Positions 13,942-57,990 of a stretch of 64,000 nt of DNA are shown here, one piece after another. A program made the translations under genes and the position numbers. The notes under the pieces were generated by a model, which did not search any database, had not been told where the DNA came from, and saw nothing but the letters and a program-made list of their open reading frames with translations. Source of the DNA: an uncultured Desulfobacterales bacterium (GTDB lineage: Bacteria > Desulfobacterota > Desulfobacteria > Desulfobacterales > C00003060). Numbering within the stretch: position 1 is the stretch's first letter; each line of letters begins with the position of its first letter. The DNA is taken from assembly GCA_964440795.1 (NCBI GenBank), contig CAYTTQ010000005.1, positions 1,415-65,414 on the forward strand. Reading direction: 5' to 3'.

Positions 13942-14016
13942 TGGGGTGTCGTCAAGTGGTAAGACACAGGATTTTGGTTCCTGCATTCGGAGGTTCGAAT
14001 CCTCCCACCCCAGCCA
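13942..14016 (+). tRNA. tRNA-Gln (anticodon TTG)
   Basis: Cloverleaf folded by hand: acceptor TGGGGTG/CACCCCA, anticodon arm CAGGA-TTTTGGT-TCCTG, T-arm GGAGG-TTCGAAT-CCTCC, encoded CCA. Confidence 0.93.
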
Positions 14017-48716: not shown

Positions 48717-48992
48717 ATGAAGACCCGGTTGATTGAAATGCTTTGCCCCAAGTCGTTTATGCACGATGAGAAACCGATATACACGCTGGCCTCCGGCCGC
48801 CGGAGCCAATATTATATCAATTGCAAGCCCACGACGTTACATCCCAAAGGCATGTTTCTGGTGGGACACCTGGTACTGGAGCGCATTAAGGATCCCCATG
48901 TGGAAGGCGTCGGTGGCCTTACTTTCGGCGCCGATCCGGTGGCCATGGCAACCGCCTTTGCCTCCTACCTGGAGAAAAGTGGACGAATATAG
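48717..48992 (+). pseudogene. Orotate phosphoribosyltransferase-like N-terminal stump (91 aa)
   Basis: [16 protein letters not shown]-type N-terminus and [11 protein letters not shown] are present. The ORF stops before any PRPP-binding (VxxVDDVxTTG) motif, and no continuation appears in any frame. Confidence 0.6.
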
Positions 48993-49746: not shown

Positions 49747-50099
49747 AGGCTCGCGGAAAGGGCGTCTTCGCCTGTGTTTGTTGGGACCAACATGGACATT
49801 GGCTGACCGAGCCTTCCCATGACTCACCGCAACCATGAGGTACTCTACCCAACGGCGTCGATGTCAACGTGTTGACAAATCAGGAGCATATAGACCATTT
49901 ACCCGGCCCGCCACCGGGAACCCCGCCGCCCCCTAAACACTCAACTGATTGATGTTGCTAGATAAATATAACTGTAGCCATTAATGGCATGCTTCATGCA
50001 TTAAAGATGCGACAGTCAGGGGCAGGGGCAACAAACCCCATGATTTATTCGATAATTCGAATCGAGTCCCCGCACAGAGAGTCACGGGCAGCATGAACA

Positions 50100-52244
50100 A
50101 TGAATAGACCAATGATTACCACTGACAACATACAAAATGCCGACAACGAATACGCTCAGAGCATTCTACGGGCGTCTGTCGAACCCGGTTTTACCGAACT
50201 GAAAGCCGCTCTGACCGAGGTGTGTGACGCGTTAATGGCAATTTCATCGGGGAACCCGGCCTGCCGTGTTTCGGAAAAAGGTGACGCGGAACCGATCAGG
50301 ACATTAAAACGGGCGGTGAATGAAACAGCCGAGGGTTGCGGTCAAATGGTTGAAATGGCCCATGAGTTCGCCATCGGCATGGCCGAACTCTTTGATGTCT
50401 TCAATCGGGTGGCCGCAGGCGATCTCACCGCACGAATGCAAGGCCACTCGGACATGGAGCTGATGAATCTGCTAAAAGAACGGTCCAATCAGATGATTCA
50501 CAGCGTTTCTACCGAGATTGAGCGGCGCAAAGAGGCACAAGAGGCGCTGGGCGGCCTCCACAAAGAATTGGAAGACCGAGTCAAACAACGAACCGCACAG
50601 TTGTCCAGAGCCAACAAAAAGTTGAGAAGTCAAGTCAGGGAACGCAGACAGACCGTAGATGAGCTGCGCCTGGCCAACCGGAAGATCGTAGAACAGCAAC
50701 GGGCCGTGGTTCAGGGAGAAAAGCTCGATGTACTGGTTCAGATGGCCGGAGCTACCGCACATGAATTGAATCAACCGCTGACGGTTCTATTGGCCAACAT
50801 TGATCTTCTCAACAAGCACTTGAACGACCCAAAAAGATTTTCAGAATACGTCTCCCGGATAGAAAGTGCGGGAACCCGCATTGCCGACATTGTCAAAAAG
50901 GTGGGCAACATTCGTCATAACGATGTTCGCCCCTATGTGGGCCGTACGGCGGTCATTGACCTGGATCAAAAAATCAAAGTCCTGTTGGTGGAAAGCCCGG
51001 CAAATTACCTTCAGAAACTCAACGGTATCTTGCAAGACAATGCACAAATCGATGTCACTCGGGTGGCAAGCATTGAGGAGGCGGGAAAACGGGTGGAGTC
51101 CGACTCTTTCGACGTCATCTTTTCCACCCATATCATTGATGATGGGAATTCCTTTTCCCTGATGGAATACCTGCAAGAAAGGCGGGTGGAAACACCGGTG
51201 GTGGTATTTACGCAACGAGCAAATGAGGTCATCGCTTCACAGGTCATCCGGGCCGGCGCTTGCGATTCCATGCCTGTCGACCAAGTCGATGCGGAAACCG
51301 TCTACCTGGCTATCGGCGGGGCTCTGGAAAAGGCCCGATTGAAGAGACAAACCAAAATGATTGCCCAGAGAATCGGCCTCTTGACAACCAGAGACCAACT
51401 GACCGGCCTTTTGACCCGCCCGCGTTTCATGGAAATGCTGGGACACCGGATCGCCGTTCATCAAAAAGGCAGTGGGAATTTGGCTCTCCTCATTGCCGAC
51501 ATCGACGGCCTGAAAGACATTAACGACCGATATGGGTATGGTGCCGGCAATGCCGTGTTACGCGACGTGGCCGGCATATTGTCGGAATCTATCGAAGAGG
51601 GAGACTTGACTTGTCGCTACGGTGGCCAAGAATTCACGGCTCTTTTGCGAAATACCAGCCCGAAAAAGACTCGTTCCATATGCGAAAGATTTAAAAACCG
51701 CGTAGAACAAGAAAAGTTCCGGGCCCGCACATCCGAGATTTCTGCGACGGTGAGCATCGGCTATGCAAATTATCACCAGTTAACCCGAGCGTCAGCCGCC
51801 GAATTCGTGGAAAAGGCTTGTCAGGCATTGGCCCGCGCCAAGGATAATGGAAAAAATCGCCTGATGGCCTATTCCCACCACCTGCCGTGGCAGGCACCCC
51901 GGCTGGGACGACTCTTGGTATCAGAAGGTATCGTAACGGAAAGACAACTCGACAAAGCCTTGTCCGAGCAAAAACGTCGGTTTGGAGAAACGCTCGTTAA
52001 CGGCGGGCGCATCGAGCCGGACCAACTCGAAGAGGCCCTGAAAGTCCAAAATCAGACTTCCGAGAAGCTCGGACAAATCCTCAAACGTCTGGGACACATC
52101 ACTACCGGCGATATCATGTGGGCCGTAAACACCATGAAACGAAAGCTCGGCGCCATCATGCAAGAAAATGGGTTTCTCACCCACTATGAACTCCATCAGG
52201 CGCTGGCCATGCAGCAATATCGCCCCCGATGGACCTCGTCATAA
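50100..52244 (+). CDS. Multidomain c-di-GMP signalling protein: HAMP-like, coiled coil/DHp, pseudo-receiver, GGDEF-family domain (GGQEF), tandem MshEN-type motifs
   Basis: H-box-like AGATAHELNQPL with no HATPase domain. Receiver-like fold lacking the acidic pocket (LLVESP, DVIFSTH). RYGGQEF at 51621-51635. C-terminal RLGRLLVSEGIVTERQLDKALSEQ plus three further 24-residue repeats. Confidence 0.88.
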   Translation: MNRPMITTDNIQNADNEYAQSILRASVEPGFTELKAALTEVCDALMAISSGNPACRVSEKGDAEPIRTLKRAVNETAEGCGQMVEMAHEFAIGMAELFDVFNRVAAGDLTARMQGHSDMELMNLLKERSNQMIHSVSTEIERRKEAQEALGGLHKELEDRVKQRTAQLSRANKKLRSQVRERRQTVDELRLANRKIVEQQRAVVQGEKLDVLVQMAGATAHELNQPLTVLLANIDLLNKHLNDPKRFSEYVSRIESAGTRIADIVKKVGNIRHNDVRPYVGRTAVIDLDQKIKVLLVESPANYLQKLNGILQDNAQIDVTRVASIEEAGKRVESDSFDVIFSTHIIDDGNSFSLMEYLQERRVETPVVVFTQRANEVIASQVIRAGACDSMPVDQVDAETVYLAIGGALEKARLKRQTKMIAQRIGLLTTRDQLTGLLTRPRFMEMLGHRIAVHQKGSGNLALLIADIDGLKDINDRYGYGAGNAVLRDVAGILSESIEEGDLTCRYGGQEFTALLRNTSPKKTRSICERFKNRVEQEKFRARTSEISATVSIGYANYHQLTRASAAEFVEKACQALARAKDNGKNRLMAYSHHLPWQAPRLGRLLVSEGIVTERQLDKALSEQKRRFGETLVNGGRIEPDQLEEALKVQNQTSEKLGQILKRLGHITTGDIMWAVNTMKRKLGAIMQENGFLTHYELHQALAMQQYRPRWTSS

Positions 52245-53712: not shown

Positions 53713-55293
53713 TCAAACCGATTTCTTGGACATATTCTTTCCCGAATTGCCCATTTTCGTTATCTCTGAAACCTTCTTTTCCATGATTAACACCTTGTCA
53801 ACCACCATCTCAAGGGATTTCTTGTTGGGATCATTGTCACGCATATTCTTGCTGATTCTCCGCGCGAATCCGCCCACCGCGGTCAACGGATTCCGAAGTT
53901 CGTGGGCCACCGTATTGGCCATCTGCCCCAAGGCGGCAAGCCTTTCGGCCTCCACCAGTTGCCGATTTTTGTTTTTAAGTTCCTCGGTCCGTTCCCGGAC
54001 CTTTTCTTCGAGTTCCAGGTTAAAGGCTTCCAATTCGTCGTGGGCCTTCCGCAACGCCTCTTCGGCTTCCTTTCGTTCTGTAACATCCTGGACCAGACCA
54101 TCATAGGACAACAACCGACCATGGCGGTCATAGTTTAAAACCAACGTACTCTTGGCCCACCGGGTCACACCGTCCTTGCGTATGATTCGATGTTCCAAAG
54201 CAGGCGCTTTGGCGCCCGACAATGCTTGTTCGGCCTGCTCTTCAACCGCCTGTCGGTCATCGGGATGCACCATCTGAATCCATAGATAGGAATTATTTTG
54301 GAAGTCTTCGGCCGTATACCCGGTCACTGCCGCACAGGCGGGCCCGTGAATCGTTTCCACTGCGTGGCCGTCTTGCACCAGTACGGTATAAATATAGTCC
54401 GTAATGGCCTCGGTAATGCGCCGGTAGCGATCTTTATTTTCCCGCAATTCCGCTTCCGCCCGCTTACGCTCGGTAATGTCCATGGCGGTAAAGGTAATCC
54501 AGTCTTTCATGTCATCCATTTGGATGGGTGTGGAACTCAAAAGCACATCGATGATCGTAGCGTCCTTGCGCTTCCAGCACGTCTCGATGGTCCCTATCCC
54601 GTACTTGTTGATCTGCGCATACTTTTCCTTTCCCACCCGGGCGTATTCCTCCGGTGTGGGGTAGAGCATCTCGGCCTTTTGCCCCAACAGTTCGTCCTCG
54701 CTGTATCCGGTCATCTCACAGATACGCTCATTGATCCGTTTGAAAATCCGATCGCTAACCAAACCGATGCCTGTAGGGGCGGCCTTGAAAAGGCTGTCCA
54801 ACGTTGCATCCCTTTTACAAAGCGTTTCTTCAACCCGTTTTCGCTTGGTGATATCCAGGGCGACGGACATTGCCCCGATGACATTGCCGGCCGGGTCGTG
54901 GAGTGGGGAGTTATTCCATTCGCAGACGATGATCTTACCGCTCTTGGTCAGATTTTCATTTATGGAGTGATTGGGAAGTTTGCCGTTGACCAGACCAGCA
55001 ACCACATCCTCTACATGACCTTTTTCCGAGTGCGGAATTAAAAAAGAAAAGAAGTTGCGGCCCAGGGCCTCTTCCTTGGTCCAACCGAAGAGTTCCTCCG
55101 CCTTTTTGTTCCAATCGGTGACCCGGGTCTCCAGATCCCAGATGACGAATGCCAGCGGTGCCGTATCATAGAGGTTGCGAAAGAGTTCTTCGCTCTTGCG
55201 AAGGGGCTGCTGGACCTGTGAACATTTTGCCGCCGCAGTTTCCAGTTCCTTGACCTTCAGCTCCAGTGCTTCGTAAGACGGCTTTTCATCCAT
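53713..55293 (-). CDS. Triple-PAS sensor protein ending in a HisKA (DHp) domain, with no ATPase domain
   Basis: Three PAS-like repeats. H-box QMANTVAHELRNPLTAVGGFARRI. The ORF ends ~60 aa later with no N/G1/G2 boxes. Confidence 0.85.
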   Translation of the reverse strand: MDEKPSYEALELKVKELETAAAKCSQVQQPLRKSEELFRNLYDTAPLAFVIWDLETRVTDWNKKAEELFGWTKEEALGRNFFSFLIPHSEKGHVEDVVAGLVNGKLPNHSINENLTKSGKIIVCEWNNSPLHDPAGNVIGAMSVALDITKRKRVEETLCKRDATLDSLFKAAPTGIGLVSDRIFKRINERICEMTGYSEDELLGQKAEMLYPTPEEYARVGKEKYAQINKYGIGTIETCWKRKDATIIDVLLSSTPIQMDDMKDWITFTAMDITERKRAEAELRENKDRYRRITEAITDYIYTVLVQDGHAVETIHGPACAAVTGYTAEDFQNNSYLWIQMVHPDDRQAVEEQAEQALSGAKAPALEHRIIRKDGVTRWAKSTLVLNYDRHGRLLSYDGLVQDVTERKEAEEALRKAHDELEAFNLELEEKVRERTEELKNKNRQLVEAERLAALGQMANTVAHELRNPLTAVGGFARRISKNMRDNDPNKKSLEMVVDKVLIMEKKVSEITKMGNSGKNMSKKSV

Positions 55294-55452: not shown

Positions 55453-55528
55453 TGGTGCCCCCGGCAGGAATCGAACCTGCGGCGCAAGGATTAGGAATCC
55501 TTTGCTCTATCCCCTGAGCTACGGGGGC
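55453..55528 (-). tRNA. tRNA-Arg (anticodon CCT)
   Basis: The reverse complement folds as GCCCCCG/CGGGGGC acceptor, AAGGA-TTCCTAA-TCCTT anticodon arm, GCAGG-TTCGATT-CCTGC T-arm, encoded CCA. Confidence 0.92.
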
Positions 55529-57804: not shown

Positions 57805-57990
57805 CTAAGGGTTCGCGCAAAAATAACTTCACAGAATGGGCGCTCGGATTTGGTTCGGATTTGCCCGATCCGATTGAGCAAAATCGCAGGCATAGCAGGC
57901 TATGTCGAGGTTTTGCGAGTGAGGTATCGGGCAAAGACGGGCGGAAGCCGAGATGGCAAAATGTGAAGTTATTTTTGCGCGAGCCCTAAG
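57805..57990. repeat. 186-bp palindromic element with 29-nt terminal arms pairing at 27 of 29 positions (inner 21 perfect)
   Basis: Left arm CTAAGGGTTCGCGCAAAAATAACTTCACA (57805-57833). Right arm TGTGAAGTTATTTTTGCGCGAGCCCTAAG (57962-57990). The right arm covers the hflX stop codon. Confidence 0.85.

Follow-up and report, generated by a model that had tools for sequence, protein, structure and literature searches.

The DNA analysed here (the window) is a 64,000-nucleotide stretch of contig CAYTTQ010000005.1 from an uncultured Desulfobacterales bacterium. Its forward strand carries, at positions 50100..52244 (stop codon included, from the listing of open reading frames, ORFs), a gene for a 714-residue soluble signalling protein of the GGDEF family with a GGQEF signature and a tail of MshEN-type motifs, the class of motif through which MshE binds cyclic di-GMP (c-di-GMP). 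An earlier note, made from the letters of the window alone, had reported this ORF, which exists as stated. From N- to C-terminus the protein consists of a helical region, a long coiled coil, a HisKA/DHp hairpin without an ATPase domain, a pseudo-receiver, the GGDEF domain with its GGQEF site and four MshEN-type motifs.

Domain layout and residue losses

A full-length AlphaFold2 model of the window protein (pLDDT 74.7) shows an ill-defined helical N-terminus, a helix at residues 118-239 that runs into the DHp hairpin, a receiver (REC) domain, a long linker helix, the GGDEF domain and a helical tail. No transmembrane helix was found in the 714 residues (maximum Kyte-Doolittle value of a 19-mer, 0.98). 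The N-terminal helical region (50100..50450, + strand, residues 1-117) has a pLDDT below 57 throughout and is confined to the clade of GGQEF proteins described below; relatives have a REC or PAS domain in the same place. The HAMP-like segment proposed in the earlier note is not upheld, as the Pfam match at residues 100-117 covers 18 residues and reaches 15.9 bits against a cutoff of 25, in a part of the model of low confidence and with no transmembrane helix upstream.

The coiled coil and DHp hairpin (50451..50906, + strand, residues 118-269) are modelled as helices at 118-239 and 244-269. Pfam recognises HisKA at residues 214-267 (33.7 bits, cutoff 26.9) with the H-box AHELNQPL, whose His221 is encoded at 50760-50762. 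The window protein has no Pfam match to HATPase_c, and hence none after the DHp hairpin, in line with the earlier description of an H-box without an ATPase. The segment around the H-box, QMAGATAHELNQPL, is almost invariant across the HisKA-REC-GGDEF family, and PF02518 is likewise absent from the precomputed Pfam domains of the relatives (P0001-P0063).

The pseudo-receiver (50973..51344, + strand, residues 292-415) is matched by Pfam Response_reg at residues 294-389 (36.8 bits, cutoff 30.2), and the model shows the beta/alpha pattern at 292-392. Its phospho-acceptor pocket is missing, as had been noticed before: the acceptor Asp is T343, the conserved Lys is V393 and the second acidic residue is S299 (pair E298/S299), while Thr371 is kept. 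In the 36 relatives compared, these columns hold D (or E), ED and K. The relatives read FDLILLDY...PVVVITG...YDYLPK and the GGQEF clade reads FDVIFS(T/V/A)H...PVVVFT...CDSMPV, with the acidic pair shrunk to ES, DN or EN. Judged by these residues, the receiver of the window protein is no longer phosphorylatable.

The degenerate GGDEF domain (51387..51869, + strand, residues 430-590) matches PF00990 at residues 430-587 (E = 4.1e-33, profile positions 2-161 of 161) and TIGR00254 (126 bits), and its matches to diguanylate cyclases among PDB sequences reach 4e-25; the NCBIfam models for PleD, DgcR and LvrB match below their cutoffs. The signature RYGGQEF occupies residues 506-512 (51615-51635); the earlier note had recognised it correctly and given it the coordinates 51621-51635, which are those of the pentapeptide GGQEF only. 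The third residue of the motif (E370 in PleD) is Q510 in place of the acidic residue of an active cyclase. Three further positions, in PleD numbering, are changed: H340 to Y480, D344, a guanine contact, to N484, and R446, a phosphate contact, to K585. An RxxD I-site would stand five residues before the GG motif; it is absent as claimed, and its position (51594-51605) reads EEGD (E499 to D502).

Within the family, GGQEF is found in the window protein and P0001-P0004 only (73-95% identity) and is fixed in all five; other members carry GG(D/E)EF with few exceptions. The H340 to Y change is also fixed in this clade, D344 is Asn in all members but P0003, which is also the only one to keep the I-site Arg, and the R446 position reads K, E, F, E and Q, a variation that points to relaxed constraint at this residue. 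All catalytic residues are kept in 36 of 46 relatives that lack the tail. The same Glu-to-Gln change has been made in E. coli DgcZ, where E208Q (GGEEF to GGQEF; G206-G207-E208) is entered as catalytically inactive (PMC8262984, Table 3) and also belongs to the standard dead mutant (PMC11452175). Because GGQEF matches this inactive change, other contacts to substrate and phosphate have changed too and RxxD is gone, the GGDEF domain of the window protein has very probably lost cyclase activity. An active 'GGQEF' mentioned in PMC12900916 appears to mean the natural GGDQF of ZMO1055, with Gln at the fourth position, and we take it as a general caveat only.

The C-terminal cassette and its recurrence

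The tail contains four motifs of 24 residues, all on the + strand: M1 (51900..51971, residues 601-624, RLGRLLVSEGIVTERQLDKALSEQ), M2 (51978..52049, residues 627-650, RFGETLVNGGRIEPDQLEEALKVQ), M3 (52065..52136, residues 656-679, KLGQILKRLGHITTGDIMWAVNTM) and M4 (52143..52214, residues 682-705, KLGAIMQENGFLTHYELHQALAMQ). Four consecutive repeats had been placed at 51900-52214; the places are exact, and the repeats are not strictly contiguous, being separated by spacers of 2, 5 and 2 residues. The protein ends 9 residues past M4. M1 fits the published consensus RLGxx(L/V/I)(L/V/I)xxG(L/V/I)(L/V/I)xxxxLxxxLxxQ at each defined position, as the earlier note had found, and a regular-expression search of the six-frame translation of the window returned M1 only. 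M1 is also the only motif of the four to pass Galperin's relaxed motif.

The c-di-GMP site described by Wang 2016 is built from two motifs and a 5-residue spacer, with key residues R1, L2, G3, L17, L21 and Q24. At these six contacts M1 is complete, M2 has five exact (L2 to F), M4 has five, with Lys at position 1 and the other contacts kept, and M3, the most degenerate (Q24 to M, L17 to I, L21 to V), has two (K, L, G, I, V, M). Off-consensus residues are R11 in M2, K7, H11 and M24 in M3, and Q7 in M4. In a study of PilF GSPII-B, position 1 was extended to R/K/L, Lys or Leu there raised the affinity, and single Q-to-E changes weakened binding 77- to 158-fold without abolishing it (PMC11731258). 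Since R, K and L are all accepted there, the Lys of M4 is compatible with binding and may even favour it.

Profile and structure searches assign the tail to the same group. The tail reaches 86.4 bits (cutoff 38; E = 7.9e-25) with the 53-position NCBIfam model NF053729 (c-di-GMP_motif, MshE-related), a signal far beyond chance. Within the last 115 residues the model matches three stretches, the best of which (627-673) starts at M2. The NCBIfam models for NfrB give weaker cross-matches. Three of the Pfam families that the earlier note had pointed to, GGDEF, Response_reg and HisKA, are thus above cutoff in the window protein, and the fourth, T2SSE_N (PF05157), has no match, nor has PF00437, so that a full MshEN domain is not recognised. 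With the last 124 residues as query, phmmer found among the PDB sequences PilF (6f8l, 5e-9), PilB (5zfr) and MshE (5htl, 1e-5).

An AlphaFold2 model of the tail, computed with eight homologous tails, has a pLDDT of 85.8 and a pTM of 0.74. When this model was compared with the PDB by Foldseek, MshEN/GSPII domains took all of ranks 1-12; probabilities are 0.89-1.00 for the 11 best matches, and 10 of these 11 are c-di-GMP-bound structures. The alignments cover about 50 columns, that is, one 53-residue unit, and in 8 of the 12 the root-mean-square deviation is 0.7-0.9 Å over 48-50 columns. The matched unit is probably M2-spacer-M3, an assignment obtained by counting identities and not given by the tool: identity to 5HTL is 33-34%, and a hand count yields about 32% for M2-M3 and about 50% for M1-M2. 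On these sequence and fold matches, we identify the tail as an MshEN_N-type cassette, for which binding of one c-di-GMP or more is predicted.

The same arrangement recurs in other proteins. A HMMER profile built from eight tails was run exhaustively over 1.84 billion cluster representatives and matched 11,964 of them at E<=1e-3, 1,257 at E<=1e-10 and 66 at E<=1e-30. When only the tail was used as query in a word-index homolog search, 10 candidates appeared, none of them significant. Of the best 150 profile matches, 67 cover all four motifs of the profile in a single stretch, and 60 of the 67 end within 25 residues of the C-terminus. The cassette, about 115 residues long, is found in at least 67 protein clusters. 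It occurs on HisKA-REC-GGDEF family members (P0003, P0129, P0136, P0139, P0144, P0152, P0159), on proteins with a zinc ribbon and a class III nucleotide cyclase domain (Guanylate_cyc; P0179, P0195), on a PIN-like protein (P0142) and many proteins of about 195 residues, and as stand-alone proteins of 116-131 residues; an NfrB-like glycosyltransferase (P0121) has cassette-like repeats.

In every cassette case the best NF053729 stretch starts at M2, and the canonical 53-residue unit is therefore M2, a 5-residue spacer and M3, flanked by M1 and M4. Over the 67 cassettes, G3, L21 and Q24 of M1 are conserved in 100% and Q24 of M2 in 99% (M1 and M2 taken together: G3 99-100%, L21 93-100%, Q24 99-100%). 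Q24 of M4 is conserved in 64%, and position 24 of M3 is never Gln and is Met in 48%, so that the loss seen in the window protein is a family-wide trait. By its recurrence and spacing, the tail is a discrete, autonomous cassette of about 115 residues, in a register distinct from that of the known (MshEN_N)2 proteins. The tandem array described earlier thus does consist of four MshEN-type motifs, in a defined 2/5/2 arrangement rather than a loose series. Its C-terminal position, which had been called unusual, is less odd than was claimed, as MshEN_N is known as a promiscuous module that also occurs at C-termini (Wang 2016, Suppl. Table 4).

The Pfam MshEN model misses the cassette, and annotators name these tail proteins 'diguanylate cyclase' or 'cell cycle response regulator' and nothing more. 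We considered Pfam DUF4388 and FumaraseC_C as separate domains in the tail and its relatives and rejected both, the matches being sub-threshold or cross-matches to the motif. Across 101 cassette proteins, PF10415 (FumaraseC_C) and PF14332 (DUF4388) cross-match the MshEN_N motif in 38 and 57, mostly under their cutoffs, and can mislead automatic annotation of such tails.

These data also bear on whether the tail could be a degenerate MshEN-like helical repeat that binds no nucleotide and serves as a dimerisation or partner-docking module. Non-binding MshEN relatives are known, XpsE and PilF GSPII-A, the latter with one good and one degenerate motif (Wang 2016; PMC11731258), three of the four motifs in the window protein fail even the relaxed motif, and spacers of 2 residues are unlike those of every characterised binder (5 in MshE, 4 in NfrB). 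We nevertheless regard a non-binding tail as quite unlikely: contacts in M1 and M2 that are almost invariant over 67 diverse cassettes are hard to explain without a ligand, the NF053729 score is more than twice its cutoff, and loss of the I-site is confined to tail-bearing proteins, as described in the next section.

Relatives, selection and gene neighbourhood

The closest orthologue, P0001 (95% identity), lies in syntenic metagenome contigs, and the relatives come from microbial-mat metagenomes and metagenome-assembled genomes of Deltaproteobacteria; a scan of genome contigs found no orthologue and just one unrelated HisKA match. The ratio of non-synonymous to synonymous substitution rates (dN/dS) is 0.135 for the whole gene. 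Against the 95% orthologue it is 0.11 for the N-terminus, 0.05 for the DHp region, 0.36 for the pseudo-receiver, 0.13 for the degenerate GGDEF domain and 0.14 for the tail; against the 73% orthologue the domains range from 0.02 to 0.12. The H-box/DHp region has the lowest values of the gene (0.05 and 0.02), and the GGDEF domain has 0.12-0.13 over both comparisons. As all domains are under purifying selection, the gene is not decaying.

The proteins P0005-P0063 form a sizeable family with the order (REC or PAS), DHp without ATPase, REC and GGDEF, and with the H-box segment given above. This layout suggests intramolecular or relay-type phosphotransfer, from REC to His to REC, that would control the cyclase; in several members Glu replaces the acceptor Asp of the second REC.

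The domain order with the same tail was also found elsewhere, on HisKA-REC-GGDEF relatives that include P0006, P0007, P0129 and P0144, and in all four of these the tail accompanies fully intact catalytic residues and an intact receiver. P0005-P0007 (43-47% identity) have the order REC, DHp, REC, GGDEF and tail, and P0006 and P0007 have GGEEF, RxxD and the receiver all intact. Upstream of the P0006 gene, and in the same orientation, are genes for a REC-REC protein and for a PAS histidine kinase that is complete. Because tail-bearing relatives keep GGDEF or GGEEF and the receiver, and given the operon of P0006, the ancestor was a phosphorelay-controlled cyclase from which the clade of the window protein is derived. 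On this distribution of residues and domains, the sensor-only ("reader") state arose secondarily, by degeneration of a cyclase that already bore the tail. The earlier note had seen a sensor assembled from normally catalytic parts. Its core reading, a GGDEF-family protein that has probably ceased to make c-di-GMP and bears a tail predicted to bind it, withstood all in-silico tests (profile models, PDB sequence and fold matches, the GGQEF precedent and the comparative residue losses), with descent from a tail-bearing cyclase in place of assembly. In a rough neighbour-joining tree the GGQEF clade sits on a long branch with 100/100 bootstrap support. The idea that the tail was gained once, with decay thereafter, is not supported, as the tail-bearing proteins are not monophyletic in this tree (0/100 bootstraps).

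We compared all 59 complete family members at hand, as 10 tail-bearing lineages and 46 tail-less ones. Catalytic positions are altered in 6 of the 10 and in 10 of the 46 (Fisher p = 0.024); RxxD is lost in 4 of the 10 tail-bearing lineages and kept in all 46 tail-less ones, including the 10 degenerate ones (p = 0.0006), both being statistics that ignore phylogeny and set side by side two samples from different searches. Since RxxD is lost only where the tail is present, these residue patterns suggest that the tail replaced the I-site, taking over c-di-GMP sensing and making first the I-site and then catalysis dispensable.

The protein might instead still be a weak or conditional diguanylate cyclase, with the tail as a high-affinity element for product feedback or product retention. 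The four relatives in which the tail and intact catalytic residues co-occur would fit such a role, as would the purifying selection on the GGDEF domain and the retention of most of its substrate and metal ligands, given that some non-canonical motifs are active (PMC12900916). We consider residual cyclase activity unlikely, since the exact Glu-to-Gln change inactivates DgcZ, and since D344 to N, H340 to Y, an unconstrained R446, the lost I-site and the lost receiver phosphorylation together form a pattern of relaxed catalytic constraint.

The GGQEF gene is apparently monocistronic, and the neighbouring class II aldolase gene is convergent with it. The order of the gene, the aldolase gene and a PAS-HisKA gene is kept in the 73% and 95% orthologues, and the upstream side varies. 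Promoter and terminator scans around the gene gave background levels only. A search of the 64-kb window with Rfam found no c-di-GMP riboswitch and only two tRNA genes, at 55456-55528 (-) and 13942-14013 (+). Two genes downstream (53713-55293, - strand) is encoded a 526-residue PAS-PAS-PAS-HisKA protein, also without an ATPase domain, that ends 63 residues past its H-box AHELRNPL and is a possible phosphotransfer partner.

Comparison with the closely related contigs L002 and L003 (95% identical) shows several rearrangements near the gene. A 184-bp element resembling a miniature inverted-repeat transposable element (MITE) is present at 57805-57988 of the window and at 10169-10352 of L002, with terminal inverted repeats of about 27 bp (CTAAGGGTTCGCGCAAAAATAACTTCACA ... 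TGTGAAGTTATTTTTGCGCGAGCCCTA); in L002 a second, inverted copy (97% identical) directly follows the GGQEF stop codon, a place at which the window has only 22 bp of intergenic sequence. At 48717-48992 of the window (junction 48972-48979), 330 bp of L002 (4266-4595) are missing, which removes the 3' part of a phosphoribosyltransferase gene and leaves an ORF of 91 residues against 192 in relatives, so that the gene may be truncated or inactivated. A three-gene ABC transporter (periplasmic binding protein, permease and ATPase) that stands directly upstream of the GGQEF gene in L002 and L003 is absent from the window (49747-49838 against L002 5371-7740). As it is present in L002 and L003 but not in the window, it is an indel polymorphism between close strains.

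Proposed mechanism and comparison with known systems

Our overall explanation, to which we assign a probability of roughly 0.6, is that the protein is a dead-cyclase scaffold that reads c-di-GMP through its C-terminal cassette. It would be a cytoplasmic scaffold descended from phosphorylation-controlled cyclases, with the order sensor, coiled coil, DHp without ATPase, receiver and GGDEF. The coiled coil and DHp hairpin would form a parallel dimer, and the dead GGDEF domain and pseudo-receiver would act as a conformational relay or an interaction surface. c-di-GMP would be read by the cassette, in which 2/5/2 spacers separate four helix-turn-helix motifs of the MshEN_N type, and ligand at the tail may shift the geometry of the GGDEF, receiver and DHp dimer. 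The output could be an altered protein contact or phosphotransfer at His221 with a partner.

Several observations weigh against this explanation, to be added to the limits on the tail statistics given above. Most residues for GTP and metal binding, D467, K472, N475, R506, E511 and K581 (PleD D327, K332, N335, R366, E371 and K442), are kept in the GGDEF domain, and a degenerate motif is not fully predictive of inactivity, as non-canonical GGDQF and GNDEF domains are reported active (PMC12900916). The canonical 5-residue spacer occurs only between M2 and M3, a pair that holds the most degenerate motif, and the best-conserved pair, M1-M2, has a 2-residue spacer. Two AlphaFold2 models disagree on which 2-residue junction, M1-M2 included, is a continuous helix, so that the motifs may pair in different ways and bind one ligand or two. 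The Foldseek E-values are weak (0.15-2.7), a consequence of the short aligned unit. The gene context reveals no identifiable output partner.

A more specific proposal is a c-di-GMP-gated phosphotransfer or phosphatase hub, in which phosphoryl groups would pass between His221 of the DHp hairpin and response regulators or kinases encoded separately, an exchange that occupancy of the cassette would switch through the dead GGDEF domain and pseudo-receiver; the cassette might then bind two ligands through non-canonical M1/M4 or M1/M2 pairing. We offer this with low confidence. If true, it would couple the level of a second messenger directly to a two-component phosphorelay, unlike CckA or ShkA.

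The sensed nucleotide could also be a different one: the tail might bind 3'3'-cyclic GMP-AMP (3'3'-cGAMP), or the degenerate GGDEF domain might be a GTP sensor, as in GTP-activated GGDEF-EAL proteins. Deltaproteobacteria use cGAMP made by Hypr GGDEF enzymes. The lineage here is deltaproteobacterial, the guanine-specifying D344 position is changed to Asn and the GTP contacts are largely kept; a passage of Wang 2016 indicates that MshEN can also bind cGAMP. The tail motifs fit the c-di-GMP consensus, P0003 of the same clade keeps D344, and Pfam finds no EAL or other GTP-regulable enzymatic output in the window protein, all of which make another nucleotide very unlikely.

In a cassette that reads c-di-GMP, as we prefer to see it, the closest counterparts are the MshEN_N subdomain of MshE of Vibrio cholerae (PDB 5HTL) and PilF GSPII-B of Thermus thermophilus (8PDK/8PFA). 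They share the 24-residue motif, (R/K/L)LGxx(L/V/I)(L/V/I)xxG..xxxxLxxxLxxQ, arranged as helix-turn-helix pairs in a small helical bundle, and are the best PDB matches in sequence and fold, with the 53-residue M2, 5-residue spacer and M3 unit superposing at about 0.7 Å. The window tail differs from them in having four motifs rather than two, no MshEN_C (T2SSE_N1), a C-terminal position without a secretion ATPase and an M3 without the terminal Gln. The (MshEN_N)2 proteins (cce_1044; Glov_2742, (MshEN_N)2-CheX; MXAN_7396, (MshEN_N)2-REC-ACyc; Wang 2016) likewise have four motifs in a row without the C subdomain, alone or fused to signalling domains that include a nucleotide cyclase. Glov_2742 has two canonical units spaced 5/~4/5 (Wang 2016, Suppl. 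Fig. 3), whereas the window cassette is spaced 2/5/2, as a half, a full and a half unit. NfrB of E. coli, a c-di-GMP-activated glycosyltransferase, resembles the window protein in carrying a C-terminal MshEN-type sensor on an enzyme; it has two motifs with a 4-residue spacer, MshEN_C and an active enzyme, whereas the enzyme domain of the window protein looks dead.

Degenerate-GGDEF c-di-GMP receptors such as PelD, PopA, SgmT, CdgA and PssE bind the ligand at a retained RxxD I-site. The window protein resembles them in that catalysis appears lost and the GGDEF domain recruited to reading rather than writing c-di-GMP; it differs in having lost the I-site (E499), the candidate sensor being a separate MshEN_N cassette. 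The REC-GGDEF cyclases of the PleD, WspR and DgcR type and DHp-only phosphotransfer proteins such as LvrB resemble the parent family, in which REC-GGDEF is preceded by a FixL-like DHp, and from which the window protein is set apart by the absence of the acceptor Asp and of an ATPase, by its unrelated helical N-terminus and by the added tail.

MshEN has been found fused to REC, HD-GYP, CheA, CheX, adenylate cyclase, kinases and glycosyltransferases, at the N- or C-terminus (Wang 2016), and C-terminal MshEN_N fusions are known from NfrB and TrxB-MshEN_N (Wang 2016, Suppl. Table 4). We found no fusion of GGDEF with MshEN_N in the architecture table of Wang 2016 or in the literature searched, a coverage that is incomplete and does not prove absence. 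What is new is the architecture and the distinct register of the cassette, together with a suggestive path from writer to reader, and not the principle; as both ingredients, the mobile MshEN sensor and the degenerate GGDEF domain that receives the signal, are established, the gain is incremental rather than conceptual. c-di-GMP networks contain many writer enzymes and comparatively few identified readers. The route suggested here is one in which a cyclase family gains a high-affinity MshEN_N-type cassette, after which the I-site and, in several lineages, catalysis become dispensable. The cassette could serve to mark c-di-GMP effectors that have gone unrecognised among nucleotide cyclases, glycosyltransferases and small stand-alone proteins of Desulfobacterota and other groups.

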